Source: a virus (Duplodnaviria; Caudoviricetes). Taken from it: a stretch of DNA of 31,056 bases. The position numbers and the translations under genes are program-made. Below are positions 16,090-27,996 of this stretch, one piece after another; position 1 is the stretch's first letter; every line of letters starts with the position of its first letter. The DNA lies in IMG/VR virus record IMGVR_UViG_3300037423_000214, positions 1-31,056 of that record. One strand, 5' to 3'. Under the pieces are notes generated by a model that did not search any database, was not told the DNA's origin, and was given only the letters and a program-made list of their open reading frames with translations.

Positions 16090-17376
16090 ATGGCAATCAT
16101 CGCATCAGTTAAAGACAACCAGGCGCAGGTAGATCCGTACCCGATGCCGAAAATGGCTGGTCCCGATCCGTATCCGACCCCGCAAATGGCTGGGCCAGAT
16201 CCATTTCCGCAACCGCAAATGAGCACTCCAGAGCCGGTTATTGCCTATCCAAAGCCAACTATTGCAGCCGGCGGCCTGGATCATTTGCCGCAGTCGCTTA
16301 GTGTCGGTACGTCAACCGCAAGTAATGGTGCTACTACGTCAAGCACTCAGCAATCAAATCAGGCCTCTGAGACGAGCGGCAATATTTCTTCGCCAGGCGG
16401 ATCTCTGCCCGTCAATTTCCCTGCGCCTGCCGGGAATATTTCGGTTGGTAACGTCGCAGCACCCAACGCGTCGACCTATGACGCTGCGCAGCTAAACGAT
16501 CCAACCAAATGGAATGTCACGCCAGACCAGACTGTTGAAGGACGCATCAATAATCTGACAGATCCGAACAATCCGTTGATTGCGTTGGCACGTACTCGGG
16601 CAAAAGAGGAGCAGAATGCGAGTGGTAGACTCAACTCAAGCATGGCCGAGACGGCTGCCGATGTCGCCGCCTATCAAGCCGCCTTGCCGATCGCGCAGTC
16701 TGACGCAGCAACCTTCTCCAAGTCGGCTGGATACAACGCCGATCAGTCCAATCAATTTGCGGTGCATAACGTTGATTCGACCAATACATCCAGACAGTTC
16801 AACGCAGGCGAACAGAATAAGCTTTCCGGACAGAAGATGGCTTCGGATACGGCTTTGGCGCAATCCAAGCTGCAATCGGATACGAACATTGCGACTGCCA
16901 ATCTAAACGCTGGAACTGACAGAGCGAAAGCCGAGTTGCAGGCCAACATACAGCGTGAGATGGGGTACTTGGATAACCAGACCAAGATCAATCTTGCCAA
17001 TCTTGATTCCGCTACGCGCACGAACTTGGCTGAGGTCGAAGCCAATTACAAGCAATTGATGCAGTCGAATGCCTCTGCCTCTGATTTGTACCGTCAAATT
17101 ACGCAGAACATTACCAATATTTCTGGTAGCACGACGATGAACGAAGAGGCGAAGCGCACAGCGATCAATAATCAATTGGCGCTTTTGCGTTCCGGTCTTG
17201 GCATCAACGGCAAGATTAGCAATTTGAATCTGGATGATCTTCTTGATTTTAGTACGGTCGACACTGGATCAAACGGCAATTCTTCTGGTGGTGCGGCATC
17301 TATTCCGTCCAAATCATCAACAGCTACCAATGCCTCCAATCCTTATGAAATACCGTTAGGTGCCGGCGGTATTTGA
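16090..17376 (+). CDS. Putative internal virion / DNA ejection protein
   Basis: 428 aa, AAGGA RBS. Pro-rich N-terminus, SGRLNSSMA motif and an N/Q/A-rich region with 11-residue periodicity. Confidence 0.65.
   Translation: MAIIASVKDNQAQVDPYPMPKMAGPDPYPTPQMAGPDPFPQPQMSTPEPVIAYPKPTIAAGGLDHLPQSLSVGTSTASNGATTSSTQQSNQASETSGNISSPGGSLPVNFPAPAGNISVGNVAAPNASTYDAAQLNDPTKWNVTPDQTVEGRINNLTDPNNPLIALARTRAKEEQNASGRLNSSMAETAADVAAYQAALPIAQSDAATFSKSAGYNADQSNQFAVHNVDSTNTSRQFNAGEQNKLSGQKMASDTALAQSKLQSDTNIATANLNAGTDRAKAELQANIQREMGYLDNQTKINLANLDSATRTNLAEVEANYKQLMQSNASASDLYRQITQNITNISGSTTMNEEAKRTAINNQLALLRSGLGINGKISNLNLDDLLDFSTVDTGSNGNSSGGAASIPSKSSTATNASNPYEIPLGAGGI
16132..16230 (+). repeat. Three tandem 33-bp coding repeats
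   Basis: DPYPMPKMAGP / DPYPTPQMAGP / DPFPQPQMSTP. Units start with GATCC at 16132, 16165 and 16198. Confidence 0.85.
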
Positions 17377-17816
17377 TGATCACGTTTCAACGCGAAACGT
17401 TATTTGATGTCATCGAAGACATCGATCATCTTTTAAAGATTCATCATGAAGAAGTGTCTCCCTATCGGGTCGAAATCGATCCGATGTGGAGCGATTATGC
17501 CGTTCTTGAGAGGATGGGAAGATATGTTTTATTCACCGCTCGATGTGATGGCGTATTGGTTGGTTACGCAGCATTTTTCTTTAATAAGCATTTTCACCAT
17601 GCAGGGCTTACCGTTGCCATCAGTGACGTCTTGTTCCTGCATCCAGAACACCGAAAAGGAACTGGCGCAGGCATTGGTCTGATTAAGTTCAGTGAATTTG
17701 AGCTGAAGAAAATCGGCGCAACCAATATCAATTGGCACGTTCCTGAACATCTTTCCGCGGTCATGCGCCATTTGGGGTATGACCGTTTGGAAGCAGTCTA
17801 CGGCAAGAATTTATAA
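17376..17816 (+). CDS. GNAT-family acetyltransferase-like protein
   Basis: Pattern R.DG.LVGY, DVLFLHPEHRKG...G..LIK..E.EL...GA and LGY...E..Y.K. TGATG overlap with the previous gene. Confidence 0.8.
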   Translation: MITFQRETLFDVIEDIDHLLKIHHEEVSPYRVEIDPMWSDYAVLERMGRYVLFTARCDGVLVGYAAFFFNKHFHHAGLTVAISDVLFLHPEHRKGTGAGIGLIKFSEFELKKIGATNINWHVPEHLSAVMRHLGYDRLEAVYGKNL

Positions 17817-19266: not shown

Positions 19267-20526
19267 ATGTCGATCATTATGAACGCAATCGGCGGCTTTG
19301 GTGAAGGCTTGCAATCTGTTGGCAAGGATTTGCAAGATCAAGACATGGCGCAGTTAAAGTCAAATCTTGAATTGAACCGCCAAGAAGCATTGGCGCAATT
19401 CACGAATAAATTGGCGGTTGACACAGAAAACCAAAAGCGTCAATCGCAGGTTGATCGTATTGGTTCGGCTCAGAAGGACATCATCAATCAGCTTATCGCG
19501 CAAAAGGCGAACAACAAATACGATTACACGGATGAGAGTGGTAATTCCAGTCCTGCTTCGTATGATGAGTTGCCTGATGATGATAAAGCCAATCCTGAGT
19601 TTCAGCCGACCGATAAGGAAAAACAAGCGGCCTATCGTGAAGCTGCCATCAAAACAGGTGATCTTGATCCGAAAACGGTCATTTCAACTTCCAGCAAAGA
19701 AGATATTGCGGAACTTAAAAATGATGCTTATCGAGACAAGATCGCCATGTCTGAGAGGGTCGCGCAAATCGCCGCACAATCACGTGTCGACGCAATGCAA
19801 ATGCGCTTGGATGCCGAGAAAGATAAGCGAGAGAACGGAAAAATCAGCGCGTCCATTGCCACCGCAGGGCTTACCAGCGAAAACAAGAATATCGATTCTA
19901 CGACGCGCCTCATCAACACTTTGACGCGCCAAATGGCGGATCTTCAAGGCGCTAAAAATAAACCTGAGCGTGACCGCATCCAGGCTGAAATTGACGGGTA
20001 CAAGGAAGAAATCAAGGAAAGTAAGCGAAACAAATCCATCTACCTGCGTCAGCTTGGCATTACGTCGGAAGATAAGCTGCCTGAGCAAAATGATGATCAG
20101 AACGCTCCTATCGGCGTTCGTCAAAACAACCCAGGCAATCTGAGAAATCCGAACGGCACTGGCTTTCAATCGTTCAGCACGCCGCAACAAGGTTTCGACG
20201 CGCTACAAAATCAGTTGCTGCGCTATGCGCGCGGTAGCACCACTGGGAAGCCGCTCGATACCGTGCAAGACATCATCAGCACATGGGCTCCTCCGTCAGA
20301 TAACAATGACACTGCCGGCTATATCAAAGAGGTTTCGGCAAAGCTTGGTGTGGCACCAGACGCGAAGCTGAATATCGCGCAAGATCCGGATATGTTATTG
20401 AATCTTTCCAAGGCCATTGCGGACCGCGAAGTGGGTCCCAAATATGCATCCAAGTTCTATGGCGCGTCGTCGCGGTCTGCCGTCGCATCCAATAATGATC
20501 CTCTCGGAATCCGCACAAAGAGCTAA
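19267..20526 (+). CDS. Ejection protein with a C-terminal lysozyme-like (virion-associated muralytic) domain
   Basis: Coiled-coil N-terminus. The C-terminal G.RQNNPGNLR...F..F.TP..G..A...L..Y...TV..II..WAP..DNNDT..YI..V...LG is a phage lysozyme-fold motif set. Confidence 0.75.
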   Translation: MSIIMNAIGGFGEGLQSVGKDLQDQDMAQLKSNLELNRQEALAQFTNKLAVDTENQKRQSQVDRIGSAQKDIINQLIAQKANNKYDYTDESGNSSPASYDELPDDDKANPEFQPTDKEKQAAYREAAIKTGDLDPKTVISTSSKEDIAELKNDAYRDKIAMSERVAQIAAQSRVDAMQMRLDAEKDKRENGKISASIATAGLTSENKNIDSTTRLINTLTRQMADLQGAKNKPERDRIQAEIDGYKEEIKESKRNKSIYLRQLGITSEDKLPEQNDDQNAPIGVRQNNPGNLRNPNGTGFQSFSTPQQGFDALQNQLLRYARGSTTGKPLDTVQDIISTWAPPSDNNDTAGYIKEVSAKLGVAPDAKLNIAQDPDMLLNLSKAIADREVGPKYASKFYGASSRSAVASNNDPLGIRTKS

Positions 20527-20529
20527 TCA

Positions 20530-23500
20530 ATGAATATTGCTGAGTTCAAGTCGCAGTACCCGCAATATGAAGATATGTCGGACGCAGATCTGGCAGACGC
20601 ATTGCATGCGAAATATTACTCTGACATTCCGAAGTCCGCATTCTTCGAGCAAGTAGGACTCCCCGCGAAAGCCGCTGAGCCGGCATCCCCATCCTCCAAT
20701 CCCAAGATCGATACCGTTTCTAATCCGATGGCAACGGACGATCAGCCGAAGAAGGGATTATTTGACACTGCGGTAGATGCAGTCAAAGGCGTTGCTTCGA
20801 ATGTCTACGAAGGCGTCAAGCACGATCTAGGCTTCGATGAAGGCAAGTCTGTCATGGATAACCTGCCCAAGCAGGCTCCTGTAGATCGGAAGGGTACGGA
20901 CAACCCAAATCTAGGGCCGTTGCGCGCCGATTACGTCGCGCGCATGTCCCAGCAAATCAATTCTCTTCCTCTTGATCAACAAGCTGATTTATCGAAGCGC
21001 GACGATTCCGTTGGCAAAATCGCCAAAAATGTATTCGACAGAAATGCGCAAAACCAAAGCAACCAAGCTGCCGGCGTTCCAGAGAATTTAACGGATGCGC
21101 AAACCGCACAGCGCGTATTGGCGCAGGGCGGCGATGGCATGCAAGATGTCGGATTTTTTGAATCAACTGGCCGTGCAACTGGCGAAGAGTTTGCTGGATT
21201 TGGCAAAGCTATCAATCTGGCGGTCTCTGTTCCAGCCATCGTTTTTGACAAGGTGAAAAGCGCTGTCACTGGCGAGAATTCAACCGGCGCACAGGACTGG
21301 GCGTTCAAGCAATTTGTCGATCCAACACAGCAGGCAGTTGATTGGTATGCGCTAAAGCCGCAAGAGCGGCAGAATTTTGTATCGAAAGTTGGTTCTGGAA
21401 TCGGTCATTTGCTGGCTGATCTCCCGCTCATCATTGCGTCAGGCGGCACATCTGAAGCGGCACCAGCCGTTGAGGGCACGGTGAGCATCTGGAAGCATCT
21501 AGGCCAATCCCTTGATCATGGGCTTACCGCCATGCGGCCGGTTATGGTCAAGGCAGGCATGGATAAGGCCGAACAGATCCTTAACAAGGGCGGCACCGTT
21601 GAGCAAGCGATTGAGGGCGGCACGACCGCAGCGCTTTTAACTGGTGCTTCCGGTGCGGTTCCGATGTCACTGGAAGGATCACTATTAAAGCGCTTGGCGT
21701 CCGGTGTACCGGTTGGCATGGCACTTTCTGAGGTTCAAAGGCAGGCTCAAAACGTTGTCATGCCTGACAACATGCAAGAACCCTTCTCATTAGAGAATGA
21801 TCTTGTCGGTGGTGTGACTGGTGCGTTAATGGCGGGAACCATGGGCGGCGGCAATCTTCGCCCAAATCTTTCGCGCGCAGAGCTTGGCTATCGTCCGAAT
21901 CGCACGCCCATGGCAGAAGCGGTTCATGAAGCCATTCCAGATTTGCAAAGGGCTTCTGATATTCAGCCTGCGGCAGAACGCCAAGTTATCAACGCGCCTG
22001 AATCCTCGATCGCCGACATTGCAAAAGCGAAGTCCGTTGATGAGGCAATTTCTTCCGCAGTCAAATCCGTTCCAAATATCGATGCCGAAGCAGTAGGGCT
22101 CAAGGGCGATGATTTGGCGCGTCATTTGGAAGATTCCAAGACGACAATCGAAAGCGTTGCCGACCAATTGAAAGCTATTCGCCCTCTGGAAGAGGTGCGA
22201 GACCTGGATACTCCTAAAGAAGAGGAGCGTTCAGTCGTTGAGAAAAATCCTGTTGAATCTATGATGGCTCCTGAGTTGGAGCGCACTGAGCCGATGGATA
22301 TGGCGGGCGAAACAGCGCAATTCTACAAACCGCCTGGACTAGATAAGGCTATTGCTGATGGCGTCATTCCGTCTTCTGTCACGCCATTAGAATTCAAGCT
22401 AGAGCCACGCACATTGACCGAGCGCGAAAAGTTAGAACAGATGCGCAATGTCGCAGGTTTGAACAGGGCTCTTTCCGCCGAAGGAATGCAGGCCGTTACG
22501 CCAGTCTATGAACCGCCTAGTGCCAATCATGCGATTGCCCGTGCCGTTGCCGATGCGTTCGGTGCCAAGGTGCAATTCATCAGCGGGGCCAGCGGATTCG
22601 ATGGTGTTTCTCACCGCGGCATTGCCTACTTGTCCGACACCATGCAAAAGCCTGAATTGGCGATTTCTGGCCATGAGGTCTATCACGCACTTGAACAAAC
22701 TAATCCCGATCTTGCTGGGCGATTGCTGGATCAGGTCCGTGCTTACCTGCACGATAATGTGATTGAAAACCGTCAGAAGTGGGAACAGGAACAGGCAGGC
22801 AAGCCGGTTTCAGAGCGCTATGCCGCTGGCGAAGTCATGGCCGATTTGAACGGTGCCATGTGGATGGATCACCGCTTTTGGCGCGAGATGATCGAACGCG
22901 ACGAAAACCTTTTCCGTCAAGTCGCCTATCGCTTTATGGAAGTCGCGACGAAGGCAGTCGATGCGTTGACTGGATCGCGCTTTGATGCCTCTGCACTGGT
23001 GAAGGATGTAGAGGTCGTTCGTTCTTTGATTGCGCAGACTTGGGCGGAACACAACCAAGCACGGGATGCCGCCCGAAGTGAGTTTGCTGCAGAAAGATTC
23101 GAGCCGCAGTTTTCACGCGAAGAGCCAGATGTCATTATCGGGTTTCCCTTGGGCGAAATGGTGAACCATCCTGATTATCAGGCTGCCAAAGCAGGCAGCA
23201 CAGAGGCCGCTATTCGTGTCGTGCGGGATATTGTCACGCCTGAATTCATTGCCAAGATAAGGGCGCAAATCGGTGATGAAAAACCCATTATTCAGCCGGT
23301 GGCGGCGATTGAAGCGTCTGGTAAAAATCGTATTCCGTCCGTTGCTGCGGCGCGCATCGCATCAGAACTTGTCTTGCCTGTTGGTGACCAAATTGTTCAG
23401 TCAAGCAGCCCGAAGCGGACTTCCCTGCAAGGTCTTGACCGTGTTTTCAATCGACCTGAATTTGACGGCGAAGTAGAAGCGGGGAGGTCATACTTCCTGA

Positions 23501-26500
23501 TTGACGATACTGTTACACAAGGCGGCACTTTCGCTGCGTTGTCAGACTATATTGATGGCCATGGTGGTAACGTTATTGGCATGGCAGCATTGACAGGTAA
23601 GCAGTACAGTGCAAGAATTGGATTAACTGACTTAACGTTAGGGGCACTTCGTGAAAAACATGGCGACATCGAACAGCATTTCCAAGCCGCAACGGGGCGC
23701 GGATTCGACTCGCTCACAGAATCCGAAGCCCGTTATCTCGCAAGCTTCAAACCGCCTGAGTCCGTCCGAGATCGAATCCTTCAGGAAGGACAATCAGCGC
23801 ACGATCGAAATGGCGAAGCAGGCCTTTCGCAAGACGAAGTAAATCAGCCGAAGTTCTCGCGCACAAGCGAAGAAAATCCCCCGTTCTACTCCCACCTAGA
23901 ACGTCAAATCCAGCAAGCCCCCGCCAAGATCGACAACGGTCCTGCGCAGCAGTGGAAAGCCTGGATACTCTCAAACGCCAGCAAGCTCGGCATTAAGGCC
24001 GAAGAAATCAAGTGGTCCGGTATTACGGATTACCTCGATTTGATGGGAAAGCAAAAAGTCTCCAAGGAACAGATCAGCGAATACCTCGCGCAAAATGGCG
24101 TTAAGGTGACGGAGATCATCAAAGGTGAAAATCCGGAGCCTATGCGCAAAGGTCGGGAGCTCGCGGAATCGCATGGGCACGATTGGGAAAGTCTGTCGAT
24201 TGCTGATCGCCGTCGCTATACGCAGCGCGCCAATGGCCATTCCTTGGTCGAAGATATTCCAAGCGAAACCAAATATGGCAAGTACACCTTGCCTGGCGGC
24301 GAGAACTACCGCGAATTGCTGCTGACGCTGCCGAACCGCATTGGTGACAAACTCGCTGAGTTGAAGCAACGTCGTGCTGCAATCGAAGAGCCGTATCAGC
24401 GTCGCGGTGAAGACTTGCCAGAATCCGTTCTGCCGGAGTGGAAATCTCTTAACAAGCAGATCAATGAACTGCAGTCGCAAAAGCCCACCGATTATTCTTC
24501 CTCCCACTGGGACGAACCAAACATTCTGGCGCATATTCGCTTCAACGACCGCACCGATGCCGATGGCAAGCGTGTGCTGTTCATCGAGGAGCTGCAATCG
24601 GATTGGGGCCAAGAAGGCAAGAAGAAAGGCTTTAGCTCAGTAGATGCGAATAAACCCGTCGTCGTTTTCGATGCTAAAACTGGTGAAAATGTCGCTCGGT
24701 TCAAAACTGGCGCTGAAGCAGAAGCGTACATTACTCAACATGACCCTAAAATGGTGATGTTGGACTACGAAGATACTACTGCGCGCGGCGGAATCGAGAA
24801 GGGCAAAATCCCTGCAGCCCCGTTCGTCACCAAGACCGAAGCATGGCTTTCTCTCGGCATCAAGCGCATGATCCGCTACGCGGCAGAAAACGGCTATGAC
24901 CGCATTGCATTCGTAAATGGCGAGCAGTCATCTGCACGGTATGACCTGAGCAAGCAGGTTTCAGATTTGACCGCGAAGAAGTGGGACGACAGCGGAAAGG
25001 TCGGAATTACCTTCACCGACAAAAACGGTAATACCCATGTGGCTGGCGAGTTCAAACCCGATGAGCTTGAGGGCGTGATCGGCAAAGATATGGCAAACAA
25101 GGTCATTGCCGACTTGTCGGATGCGTCTGATGGAACAGTAAAAAAATATTCCGGCCTTGACCTGAAAGTCGGTGGCGAAGGCATGAAAGCCTTCTATGAC
25201 AAGATCGTGCCGCAGACTGCGAATGAAGTGCTGAAGAGGCTTGGCGGCGGGAAGGTCGATTCGTCTATTATCAAGACCGGCAATGCGCCTGACCATGTTG
25301 TTGCTCAATATGCAGACCAGCCGGACCATCCGTTCACAAAGGCTCAACGGTCAACGAATCTCGGCTTCGACATCACGCCAGAGATGCGCGACCAGGCTAT
25401 GCAGGGCCAGCCATTATTCTCGCGCACTGATCAAACACAAGAGCCAACCGAGCGCCTGACTGATCGTGCCTCTGCCAAACTCTCTGAGTTCATGAAGGTG
25501 CCGAAAGAGTTTATGTCAGACTTGAAGCTTCTGACGGTCCCGATGGCGGAAGGGACAGATGTTGCGCGCAAGATGGCCAAGGACTACGCCAACCAAGAAC
25601 GCAAGGCGCAATGGCAGTGGACTAAGTTCGACGAGATTCTGAAAAAGAACTTCAGCGAAGAGCAGCGCCGTCGCATGTGGGAAGCTGCTGACCAGGAAAA
25701 CGATTTGCGTCGTGAAGGCCGCACCTCTGATACTGATGGATTGAACAGCCTGACGCCTGAAGAGCGCGAAACCGTCGAAACTTTGCATGCTTATGGAGAA
25801 GCGCTGATTCAGCGTGCGCGTGACAATGGTATGTTCGAAGGCGAGGGTGTGCCGTATTGGACGCCACGCATGGCGGTCATGGTCAGCGAATCAGGCGAAT
25901 ATACACGCCCGAAATCAGGTGGTGAGGGCGCCAGCGGCGATGTCGGCCGCAATATCACGACTTCCGCATCGAGCCTGAAGCACCGGAAATATCTGACCAG
26001 TGCTGAGACTGAAGCTGCCATGAAGGTTCGTTTGGCCGAAGAAGGCAAGGAAGTGCAGCTTGTGCGCGACATTCGTACCATGCCCATGGCCATGGCGAGA
26101 CTTGAGCGTGCGATTGCAGGGCGCGAGTTGATCAACCAGATCAAGGCGCTCGGCACCGCCACGGGCCGCGAGTTGGTGACGAATGCAGAAGGACCAGGAT
26201 TCTTCACAATCGACCATCCTGCATTCAAGTCTTGGCGCCCGAAGTTCGTGGAAGAGGATGGCCGCATGGTGTCGGCGCGCGATCAGAGCGGCGAGATGAT
26301 TTTCGAGAAGTCACCCCTGTACATTAGCAATGAGTTCAAGGGGCCGCTGAAAGCCGTCATGTCGGTCAAGCCGAATGCCGTTTATCAGGGCTTAATGACG
26401 CTCAAATCCAAGTCCATGGGTCTGATCATGTACTCCCCGATCATCCACAATGCAGTGGAGTGGGGCCGTGCGATTCCTGCGATGGATACTAAGGGAAAGC

Positions 26501-27996
26501 TGACTCTTGGAATCTATACCTACGTCACTGGCAACAAGGCCAAGAATACGCCGGAAGTCATGCGCGAGGCGATCGATCATGGTTTAGTGCCGATCGGTGG
26601 TCGCGGCGCGCATATGGACATCACCGGAATCATGGACGATCCGACGCTTGAAGTCGGCCGTAGCTGGACAGCCAAGGCATTGGCCGCACCGGTATCGTTG
26701 ATTTCTGAACGTGGCGCACTGCAGGTCAAGAAAGCTGTAGACGCTGCCGGCAAGTTCTGGCACGAGACGCTTCTATGGGATCGCGTGGCCGACCTGCAAA
26801 TGGGCTTGTATGTCTCCATGAAAAATAGCCTCATCAATAAGGGCATGGCTGAGAACGATGCCGCTTACATAGCCGCCCATTTTGCGAACCGCTATGCCGG
26901 CGCGTTGCCGCGGGAATCGATGTCGGAAGGTGCACGTCAATTCCTGAACCTGACACTGTTCTCCCGCACCTTCACCATGGGCAACTTAGGCGCCATGAAG
27001 GATATGATCGCAGGCTTGCCAAAAGACGTGCAGGCGCAGATCAGAATGTCGAGCGGCGAGCTCGCTTTGCAGGCGGCGCAGAGTTTCGCGCGCAAGAAAG
27101 CGATTGCCACGTTTATTATTGACGTCGGCTTGATGTACGTAGCAAACTCGATGTTCCAGGACTGGCTGGAAAAGCAGCGTGGCGACAAGACCTGGACACA
27201 GATCGCCCAAGGCTACAAGGATCGTTATGGAAAGTTGGCAGATAAATTGGCCAAAGATCCTGTAGCCGTTCTGGCGCATCCGTTCAATTCACTGGAAAGC
27301 CTGACTTCTACTGGTGAGAATGAGCCCGGCAAGGAAGAGCGTATCAAGTGGGGCGAAGATTCGACCGGCACGAATATTTATGTCCGCCTGCCGACCGGTA
27401 AGATTGGCGAGGAATTCGCCAATTATGCCGACTTTCCGACTGGCACAATGAAGCAGTTGAAAGCCAAGTTCTCTACCTTCCTACGTCCGTTGTATGAGAC
27501 CGTGACCAATGACAAGGGCGCCGGCCAAAAGGTCTATGATGACAGCAAGGATGCGTCGACTGCCAAGAACATCGGCAAGGTCGTCGTCAACTTCCTGAAG
27601 GCCCAGGTGCCCAGCGATCAGATTGTGGCGGCTTATGATCTATCCACAGGCCACGGCGACGAAATGGATGTCAAGAAGATTGTCGGTCCGTTGTTCGGTC
27701 TGACGTTTAGCAAGGGCGCTCCAGGCGGTCCTGCTGTGGGCGAGATGTATTCCGAAGCGCGGGAACATCAAAACAAAGTCACGCAAATCATGCCAGACGT
27801 GAAACGCGCATTGAAGCTTGGTGACGAGGACAAAGCGCGGGAATTGCTGGAGTCGGTTGATATGACGTCGAAGGAGATCAACACGGTCATTCGCCATATC
27901 GAATCGCCAGAGACAAGACTATCGATGGGGGCGATGAAAAATTACCAGCGCCATGCCACGGAAGAATCAAAAGAGCGGATGCAGAATTACAAGTGA
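20530..27996 (+). CDS. Giant internal virion 'polyvalent' protein: HExxH metallopeptidase, ComF-like phosphoribosyltransferase, GNAT-like domain and LPD38-like C-terminus
   Basis: 2488 aa. HEVYH at 22672-22686 with a downstream E (AGEVMAD); PRPP-binding motif FLIDDTVTQGGT at about 23491-23529; LFIEELQSDW at about 24577-24606; C-terminal YVRLP...LRPLYE..TN. Confidence 0.8.
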   Translation: MNIAEFKSQYPQYEDMSDADLADALHAKYYSDIPKSAFFEQVGLPAKAAEPASPSSNPKIDTVSNPMATDDQPKKGLFDTAVDAVKGVASNVYEGVKHDLGFDEGKSVMDNLPKQAPVDRKGTDNPNLGPLRADYVARMSQQINSLPLDQQADLSKRDDSVGKIAKNVFDRNAQNQSNQAAGVPENLTDAQTAQRVLAQGGDGMQDVGFFESTGRATGEEFAGFGKAINLAVSVPAIVFDKVKSAVTGENSTGAQDWAFKQFVDPTQQAVDWYALKPQERQNFVSKVGSGIGHLLADLPLIIASGGTSEAAPAVEGTVSIWKHLGQSLDHGLTAMRPVMVKAGMDKAEQILNKGGTVEQAIEGGTTAALLTGASGAVPMSLEGSLLKRLASGVPVGMALSEVQRQAQNVVMPDNMQEPFSLENDLVGGVTGALMAGTMGGGNLRPNLSRAELGYRPNRTPMAEAVHEAIPDLQRASDIQPAAERQVINAPESSIADIAKAKSVDEAISSAVKSVPNIDAEAVGLKGDDLARHLEDSKTTIESVADQLKAIRPLEEVRDLDTPKEEERSVVEKNPVESMMAPELERTEPMDMAGETAQFYKPPGLDKAIADGVIPSSVTPLEFKLEPRTLTEREKLEQMRNVAGLNRALSAEGMQAVTPVYEPPSANHAIARAVADAFGAKVQFISGASGFDGVSHRGIAYLSDTMQKPELAISGHEVYHALEQTNPDLAGRLLDQVRAYLHDNVIENRQKWEQEQAGKPVSERYAAGEVMADLNGAMWMDHRFWREMIERDENLFRQVAYRFMEVATKAVDALTGSRFDASALVKDVEVVRSLIAQTWAEHNQARDAARSEFAAERFEPQFSREEPDVIIGFPLGEMVNHPDYQAAKAGSTEAAIRVVRDIVTPEFIAKIRAQIGDEKPIIQPVAAIEASGKNRIPSVAAARIASELVLPVGDQIVQSSSPKRTSLQGLDRVFNRPEFDGEVEAGRSYFLIDDTVTQGGTFAALSDYIDGHGGNVIGMAALTGKQYSARIGLTDLTLGALREKHGDIEQHFQAATGRGFDSLTESEARYLASFKPPESVRDRILQEGQSAHDRNGEAGLSQDEVNQPKFSRTSEENPPFYSHLERQIQQAPAKIDNGPAQQWKAWILSNASKLGIKAEEIKWSGITDYLDLMGKQKVSKEQISEYLAQNGVKVTEIIKGENPEPMRKGRELAESHGHDWESLSIADRRRYTQRANGHSLVEDIPSETKYGKYTLPGGENYRELLLTLPNRIGDKLAELKQRRAAIEEPYQRRGEDLPESVLPEWKSLNKQINELQSQKPTDYSSSHWDEPNILAHIRFNDRTDADGKRVLFIEELQSDWGQEGKKKGFSSVDANKPVVVFDAKTGENVARFKTGAEAEAYITQHDPKMVMLDYEDTTARGGIEKGKIPAAPFVTKTEAWLSLGIKRMIRYAAENGYDRIAFVNGEQSSARYDLSKQVSDLTAKKWDDSGKVGITFTDKNGNTHVAGEFKPDELEGVIGKDMANKVIADLSDASDGTVKKYSGLDLKVGGEGMKAFYDKIVPQTANEVLKRLGGGKVDSSIIKTGNAPDHVVAQYADQPDHPFTKAQRSTNLGFDITPEMRDQAMQGQPLFSRTDQTQEPTERLTDRASAKLSEFMKVPKEFMSDLKLLTVPMAEGTDVARKMAKDYANQERKAQWQWTKFDEILKKNFSEEQRRRMWEAADQENDLRREGRTSDTDGLNSLTPEERETVETLHAYGEALIQRARDNGMFEGEGVPYWTPRMAVMVSESGEYTRPKSGGEGASGDVGRNITTSASSLKHRKYLTSAETEAAMKVRLAEEGKEVQLVRDIRTMPMAMARLERAIAGRELINQIKALGTATGRELVTNAEGPGFFTIDHPAFKSWRPKFVEEDGRMVSARDQSGEMIFEKSPLYISNEFKGPLKAVMSVKPNAVYQGLMTLKSKSMGLIMYSPIIHNAVEWGRAIPAMDTKGKLTLGIYTYVTGNKAKNTPEVMREAIDHGLVPIGGRGAHMDITGIMDDPTLEVGRSWTAKALAAPVSLISERGALQVKKAVDAAGKFWHETLLWDRVADLQMGLYVSMKNSLINKGMAENDAAYIAAHFANRYAGALPRESMSEGARQFLNLTLFSRTFTMGNLGAMKDMIAGLPKDVQAQIRMSSGELALQAAQSFARKKAIATFIIDVGLMYVANSMFQDWLEKQRGDKTWTQIAQGYKDRYGKLADKLAKDPVAVLAHPFNSLESLTSTGENEPGKEERIKWGEDSTGTNIYVRLPTGKIGEEFANYADFPTGTMKQLKAKFSTFLRPLYETVTNDKGAGQKVYDDSKDASTAKNIGKVVVNFLKAQVPSDQIVAAYDLSTGHGDEMDVKKIVGPLFGLTFSKGAPGGPAVGEMYSEAREHQNKVTQIMPDVKRALKLGDEDKARELLESVDMTSKEINTVIRHIESPETRLSMGAMKNYQRHATEESKERMQNYK

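Follow-up and report, generated by a model that had tools for sequence, protein, structure and literature searches.

A short peptide tag, an aromatic residue followed by Ser and then Arg or Lys ([FY]S[RK] in its strict form), stands at the joints between the modules of a giant polyvalent-type protein encoded by a Caudoviricetes virus record (IMGVR_UViG_3300037423_000214; ~52% complete; its whole 31,056-base stretch is called the window here). The protein has 2488 amino acids (aa), and its open reading frame (ORF; 20530..27996, +) is the last gene of a podovirus-like structural block. In relatives, whole modules are gained and lost at the tag, and the residue that follows the aromatic is lineage-specific. 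A zincin-like metallopeptidase (MPTase) with intact catalytic residues is embedded in the same chain. Our preferred explanation, to which comparison of the sequences leads us to give a probability of about 0.5, is that this zinc peptidase cuts at the tag, probably between Phe and Ser (Phe|Ser), after the modular polyprotein has been ejected whole.

Modules of the protein and their junctions

The chain begins with a Gly/Ala-rich region followed by a low-complexity linker (aa 1-619; 20530..22386, +), which is common to relatives. Next comes the MPTase (aa 620-856; 22387..23097, +), recognized by conservation and by a structural model, with H715, E716, H719, and E768 as catalytic residues (HEVYH motif at aa 715-719). 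The phosphoribosyltransferase (PRTase) module (aa 868-1090; 23131..23799, +) matches phrog_22413 (E 4e-64) and has stand-alone homologs; its match to Pfam PF00156 (E 4e-4) is below the cut-off. The IEELQSDW module (aa 1118-1630; 23881..25419, +), delimited by its relatives, likely has a GNAT-fold core with large inserts. The conserved C-terminal core (aa 1631-2488; 25420..27996, +) had no Pfam match and no match in cultured phages. A core-based search gave 286 relatives among 8000 scored proteins; the 120 that were listed (window protein included; 42-77% identity) all share the core and differ in their middle parts.

By every feature testable here, this is a polyvalent protein, as the sequence-only reading of the window had proposed. 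Disparate domains (peptidase, PRTase, predicted GNAT-fold module, and core) occur in one chain of 2488 aa, the architecture is variable (same-core relatives carry ART-PolyVal, PBECR5, LPD1/3/5/37, MuF-C, InPase, ParB, and GGDEF), and the gene lies in the virion-gene setting of a portal-type phage.

The same reading had placed three [Q/E]PxFSR motifs at the module borders, and all three were found there: junction 1, EPQF|SR (aa 858; 23101..23118, +), junction 2, QPKF|SR (aa 1106; 23845..23862, +), and junction 3, QPLF|SR (aa 1627; 25408..25425, +). The borders of the peptidase, PRTase, IEELQSDW module, and core were confirmed by alignments of relatives, whose starts on the window protein clustered at aa 626 (4 matches), 864 (6 matches, where PRTase matches begin), and about 1112 (18 matches), and whose ends clustered at aa 841 for the peptidase (4 matches) and at ~1630-1650 for the IEELQSDW module. 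The leading Gln/Glu-Pro proved too narrow a definition and is not a family consensus. A motif that recurs three times in one protein is weak evidence by itself, given that 60% of 300 shuffles held some AxBCD pattern three times.

The expected position in linkers was seen in predicted structures at two of the junctions and in part at the third. Junction 1 is a coil right after the last peptidase helix, with the predicted local distance difference test score (pLDDT) dropping from 87 to 61 across the motif, and junction 2 is disordered and outside the fold (pLDDT <50). At junction 3, PLF sits at the ordered module end (block pLDDT 77) and disorder begins two residues past the Arg. The protein thus shows one mark of a self-processing viral polyprotein, a recurrent motif in exposed linkers at domain borders, with junction 3 only half exposed.

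Two possible extra sites were overlooked in the sequence-only reading. The fourth FSR (aa 2144) belongs to an LFSR inside the core (aa 2143-2146; 26956..26967, +), which is nearly invariant in relatives and marks no module border. A weak RPNLSR follows the Gly/Ala-rich region (aa 444; 21859-21876, +).

The tag at breakpoints between relatives

We compared the positions of module breakpoints and tags, counting a tag as near at <=20 aa. For the 120 core relatives, the strict tag was near a breakpoint in 33 of 113 cases against 15.0 expected (z 5.2; seven controls, -1.7 to 2.0), and for 111 long proteins picked by their peptidase in 122 of 251 cases against 41.5 expected (z 13.9; eight controls, <=2.9); the controls were scrambled and substituted motifs, and these z values overstate certainty because they treat related proteins as independent. 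Inspection of 39 aligned close pairs by eye showed some seven separate events of module gain or loss at or beside the tag, three of them in clear register. Three swaps illustrate this: a module of 203 aa (PLF|S..DIRY|A in P0013 vs PLF|T in P0011/P0012), one of 195 aa (PLL|S..DIRT|K in P0016 vs PLL|K in P0020/P0026), and one of 407 aa (DIRY|SQD in P0049 vs TQQ|SQD in P0056). The proposal that the motif delimits modules and that gain or loss breakpoints of homologs map to it was thus upheld by both breakpoint counts and by the exact swaps.

Across relatives, the true motif is looser than the strict tag, a hydrophobic-aromatic pair followed by Ser-Arg/Lys. Its left half is module-specific (GxPLF, DIR[FY], GVA[LM][FY]), and GxPLF, that half of junction 3, is retained throughout the IEELQSDW module family; the right half is Ser and then Arg or Lys. 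The tag closes unrelated folds, namely IEELQSDW, ART-PolyVal, LPD1, PRTase, and peptidase. We conclude that the tag is real, selected, and widespread. Two other functions were considered and rejected by eye. Sliding-clamp motifs have the form QL[SD]LF, and the Gln five residues from the end is missing at all three window sites; an internal translation start was dismissed on the residue preceding the aromatic, which is often Lys, Arg, or Gln.

Several observations concern the tag in other proteins. In the cultured Shewanella phage vB_SbaS_Y11 (L165:3074-13192), the 3372-aa product WIF21962.1, annotated 'methyltransferase', is in fact a polyvalent protein; the same tag follows its LPD1 and ART, and its tags were located at aa 1882 and 2395. 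In a zincin-less clade (P0061, P0071, P0078, P0082, P0084, P0094, P0106), L[LF]E[DE]ExRY joints flank modules on both sides; they are candidates for a decayed tag or a different code. Among short core relatives (e.g. P0039-P0048), L[NH]xG[LI]xP or close variants occur next to the core in 12 of 54 proteins without HExxH and in 2 of 66 with it. The IEELQSDW module ends in F-x-x-G-G in P0268, P0281, P0301, P0311, and P0329. Many proteins of 650-750 aa (P0279-P0360) end with the IEELQSDW module, GxPLF, and a conserved Gly/Ala tail of 15-30 aa with acidic and basic residues last; this tail is possibly a packaging tag. In P0056 (aa 954-1070), a GNAT module is inserted between EG[LF]NL repeats in the N-terminal half, away from the tag.

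A lineage-specific residue after the aromatic

We examined 26 proteins in which an IEELQSDW end occurs together with an end of ART or LPD1, and kept 20 once near-duplicates had been removed. The residue after the aromatic agreed between the unrelated modules in 18 of these 20 lineages (permutation mean 10.4, p 2e-5), including five lineages in which it is not Ser (Gln three times, Arg, Glu). Thus unrelated folds of one protein have an address in common, which an accident of fold ends does not predict. The residue also differs with the type of peptidase: Gln was present in 8 of 8 proteins with an [AR][DN]xS[TS]xxHE peptidase (by eye), and the window-type GHExxH peptidase goes with Ser in 22 of 31 and with Gln in 0 of 31, in a table that missed HExxxH-type peptidases and whose row for proteins with no peptidase is uninformative.

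The embedded zinc peptidase

H715, E716, H719, and E768 are conserved in 100, 100, 100, and 99% of 139 aligned relatives (150 examined). In the model (pLDDT 91), HExxH and the third Glu both lie on helices, and three strands (model residues 61-83) precede the HExxH helix. The closest solved folds are lethal-factor-like proteins and Pro-Pro endopeptidases, which are gluzincins, with middling scores (Z 5.2-6.7); each of the six rows at Z>=5 is a zincin or a domain with the zincin fold. Foldseek gave no match at E<=0.001, and sequence searches of solved structures gave nothing useful. A protein-atlas search returned only unnamed clusters, at 0.83-0.84. The gluzincins differ from the window peptidase in being separate secreted enzymes with 3-14% identity, and a middling fold match shows no specificity. 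Residues and model together indicate a zincin-like MPTase with an intact catalytic set and predicted proteolytic activity.

The tag is distributed unevenly with respect to this domain. It occurs at 3.55 times expectation downstream of the peptidase vs 1.59 times upstream (114 proteins), and within the core family at 2.68-fold in 57 long proteins with HExxH vs 1.2-fold in 17 without. In raw counts, the core-proximal joint carries the tag in 21 of 66 proteins with HExxH and in 1 of 54 without. The main apparent exception, P0009, with five tags and no HExxH, has a peptidase in an overlapping upstream frame (L158:9063-10034). The giant gene at this locus (L158:6988-16519) spans three overlapping frames, from either an assembly error or real frameshifts.

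Which bond

Stand-alone PRTases bear on the position of a cut. None of 57 near-stand-alone PRTases carries the tag in its tail, and 21 of the 57 begin with [MV][SAT]KR exactly 13 residues ahead of the domain. In embedded PRTases, the tag lies 12-13 residues before the domain in 14 of 33 (F-S-R-R there). For one stand-alone PRTase (L167), an in-frame stop immediately upstream confirmed a true gene; the remainder may include fragments and are probably one clade. This gene lies directly behind an integrase-like gene in Thiolinea disciformis (L167:2848-4711). After removal of Met, a stand-alone PRTase would begin like the product of a cut between Phe and Ser. The swaps, too, break in register directly behind the aromatic. 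Both observations favour a cut before Ser; capture of a stand-alone gene could yield the same register. In bacteria, an N-terminal Ser is stabilizing, and Phe and Arg are not.

Comparison with known systems

Iyer, Burroughs, Anand, de Souza, and Aravind (2017; PMC5512222) defined the polyvalent family, predicted autoproteolytic release of its domains by the MPTase, and drew an analogy to RNA-virus polyproteins. The window protein is like their phage polyvalent proteins with a zincin-like MPTase hub in being a giant late protein with an MPTase and a PRTase, and its relatives share ART-PolyVal, PBECR5, LPD1/3/5/37, MuF-C, InPase, GGDEF, and DdrB-ParB with the 2017 set. It differs in that its core and IEELQSDW module match no Pfam LPD family. 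The parts of PMC5512222 consulted contain no junction motif, cut site, or lineage code; its supplementary alignments may show the motif. The junction tag with its lineage code adds a candidate site to the prediction of 2017.

The N4 virion RNA polymerase (vRNAP) gp50 (PMC13434306) is likewise a giant ejection protein with a membrane N-terminus, linkers, an HExxH domain, and a helical C-terminus. It differs in having been solved at full length and modelled as tethered, with one fixed enzyme, no shuffled modules, and no cleavage reported in the accessible text. The phi24B protein gp47 (bioRxiv 10.64898/2026.04.10.717836), a 2811-aa LPD5/LPD1/MuF-C protein found in virions and proposed as an ejection protein, shares modules with some relatives of the window protein; it has LPD38 instead of the window core, its authors suggest peptidoglycan as the peptidase target, and the parts of the preprint available name no processing sites. 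DdrB of phage P1 and plasmid ArdC are also MPTase-bearing proteins of invasive elements (PMC5512222; PMC7213743). DdrB is reported to be processed before packaging (PMC5512222) and ArdC is transferred whole (PMC7213743); neither is a string of tagged modules. A preprint on the crAss-like phage phi14:2 suggests zincin cleavage of a fused polyprotein. No site for the tag appeared in the accessible parts of PMC9503650, PMC11879866, and PMC9144972, and our literature search, which left subscription journals mostly uncovered, returned no paper that names this motif or site or shows a cut. PTXU04 gp25 was rejected as a model system, as it is without HExxH.

Weighing the explanations

Under the preferred explanation, a polyvalent protein of swappable modules would be packaged and ejected whole, and its embedded zinc peptidase would then cut the aromatic-Ser-Arg/Lys tag at each joint, likely between Phe and Ser. 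The products, released from a 93-kDa N-terminal part, would have masses of 27 kDa for the PRTase, 58 kDa for the predicted GNAT-fold module, and 95 kDa for the core. Modules would be swapped without DNA homology, and only in-frame joins that keep a readable tag would survive selection. Cleavage by the protein's own HExxH peptidase, already proposed from the sequence, gains indirect support from the intact catalytic residues and from a code that follows the peptidase type, but the co-occurrence of peptidase and tag fails a phylogenetic test.

That failure is one of several points that weigh against cleavage by the embedded peptidase. On the tree, co-occurrence did not go beyond kinship (median p 0.69-1), in a test whose 11 independent pairs are too few events, and the Gln/Ser split is confounded with lineage. 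By eye, the same 39 pairs also showed roughly five large indels that disregard the tag, in the N-terminal half with its low complexity. Of 127 peptidase ends, only 29 have the strict tag at <=70 aa, and when ends were scored with a profile built from three other module families, only 24 of 121 for the peptidase and 2 of 7 for the PRTase exceeded the 95th percentile. The HExxH-less clade retains repeated joints of the other kind (LFEDExRY), and a nearly invariant LFSR sits within the conserved core. GxPLF persists even in proteins that end with the IEELQSDW module, and in the model it belongs to the ordered module end; this half of junction 3 may therefore be structural. Two other systems give no support either: the N4 vRNAP structure, which includes the HExxH domain, is of the uncut protein (PMC13434306), and ArdC remains fully active in conjugation when it carries the E229A mutation (PMC7213743).

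Some of these points would fit a tag that is read and left uncut, as a docking, unfolding, or pausing signal for passage through the tail channel or for stepwise refolding, with the chain staying tethered. Such a signal explains selection at every joint and the lineage code as well as cleavage does, agrees with the beads-on-a-string model of N4 vRNAP anchored after ejection (PMC13434306), and would make the LFSR inside the core harmless. We nevertheless regard it as unlikely, for it leaves unexplained the invariant general base E716 and a code that follows the peptidase type, and the other late genes of the window lack the tag almost entirely.

The tag could also be cut by another enzyme, either a host protease or a phage protease encoded outside a record that is only ~52% complete. 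The lack of significant co-occurrence across independent pairs and the patterned joints of the HExxH-less clade would then be expected. However, no other HExxH was present in the 15 other window ORFs checked and no protease family match in 30 window ORFs, peptidase and tags lie in one protein, and the code differs by peptidase type; a foreign enzyme seems somewhat less likely still.

Still less credence goes to the tag as a by-product of gene capture, in which the natural end of one fold (xPLF, DIRF) abuts the former M-S-K-R start of a gene that once stood alone. The IEELQSDW family does have GxPLF as an intrinsic feature, and stand-alone PRTases start with MSKR in the same register, yet many unrelated folds would all need hydrophobic-aromatic ends, and the next residue switches jointly at all joints of a protein.

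The sequence-only reading had also noted that two junctions share DNA and had offered the motif as a microhomology joint. The 20-nt match between junctions 2 and 3 does exist (16 of 20 bases, 80% identity), but the gene contains at least 60 repeat families of similar size, this one included, and dozens of chance repeats are at least as good. Where one gene has several tag sites, their synonymous codons agree at 16 of 34 positions vs 12.8 expected, in a small sample (two or more sites were present in only 4 of 95 non-redundant genes); for the Ser codon, agreement was seen in 5 of 11 pairs against 2.2 expected. Swapped modules have just 3-5 residues in common at their joints or ends. Microhomology may help now and then, but it leaves the tag unexplained. 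Although the swaps map to the tag, a DNA joint with an incidental peptide is the least probable account of all, since F/Y and R/K exchange freely.

Tentatively, and with the odds against it, the preferred explanation might extend to a general code of protease plus address in phage ejection polyproteins. The zincin of each lineage would read its own residues after the aromatic (Ser-Arg in the window protein, Gln where the peptidase is of the ADxST type, as it is in P0338, and perhaps xx-Gly-Gly in others), tagged enzymes would be plug-in payloads released in the first minutes of infection, and new modules would be retuned to the code of their host protein.

The IEELQSDW module and the locus

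The IEELQSDW module is very common in metagenomes and belongs to no Pfam family; it had 1801 shorter homologs among 8000 scored, with invariant His, Asn, and Arg and invariant E-x-Q-S-D-W residues. It gave no sequence match in the PDB, no Foldseek match at E<=0.001, and no match to a Pfam GNAT family. The top four VIA matches of its model were the ICL2/Rv1916 domain and the GNAT toxins TacT2 and AtaT (Z 8.1-8.9), at a root-mean-square deviation of 3.5-4.0 over 126-149 aligned residues, and most of the top rows were GNATs. The model thus points to a probable GNAT-fold core with inserts, as a lead only, and makes the module a candidate new family of acetyltransferase-fold effectors.

Upstream of the giant ORF, the late block contains portal, major head, and adaptor genes, lysis genes, and a transglycosylase-bearing gene (19267..20526, +), likely a partner ejection protein, which is without [FY]S[RK]; the portal, major head, adaptor, and transglycosylase genes lie on the same strand as the ORF. 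The size of the 2488-aa product and its position after the transglycosylase gene make it a likely ejection protein; by analogy with the proteomics of phi24B gp47 and from the gene position, virions would carry it and deliver it together with their DNA. The N-terminal region may have a membrane role, to judge from two mildly hydrophobic segments, one around aa 221 (hydropathy peak 1.6) and one around aa 287 (1.3). A small GNAT acetyltransferase gene also lies among the late genes (window 17373-17816).

Implications

If the preferred explanation is true, it provides exact, testable cut sites for the processing step that was predicted in 2017. With it come bonds defined to the residue, predicted sizes of the products, a catalytic mutant for comparison, Gln as a second code for specificity swaps, and a cultured phage that has the same tag. 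Giant phage proteins that lack annotation can also be divided by this rule into their working units, of which the widespread IEELQSDW module is one. Should the tag be left uncut, one would still have to account for a joint signal under selection in ejected proteins.

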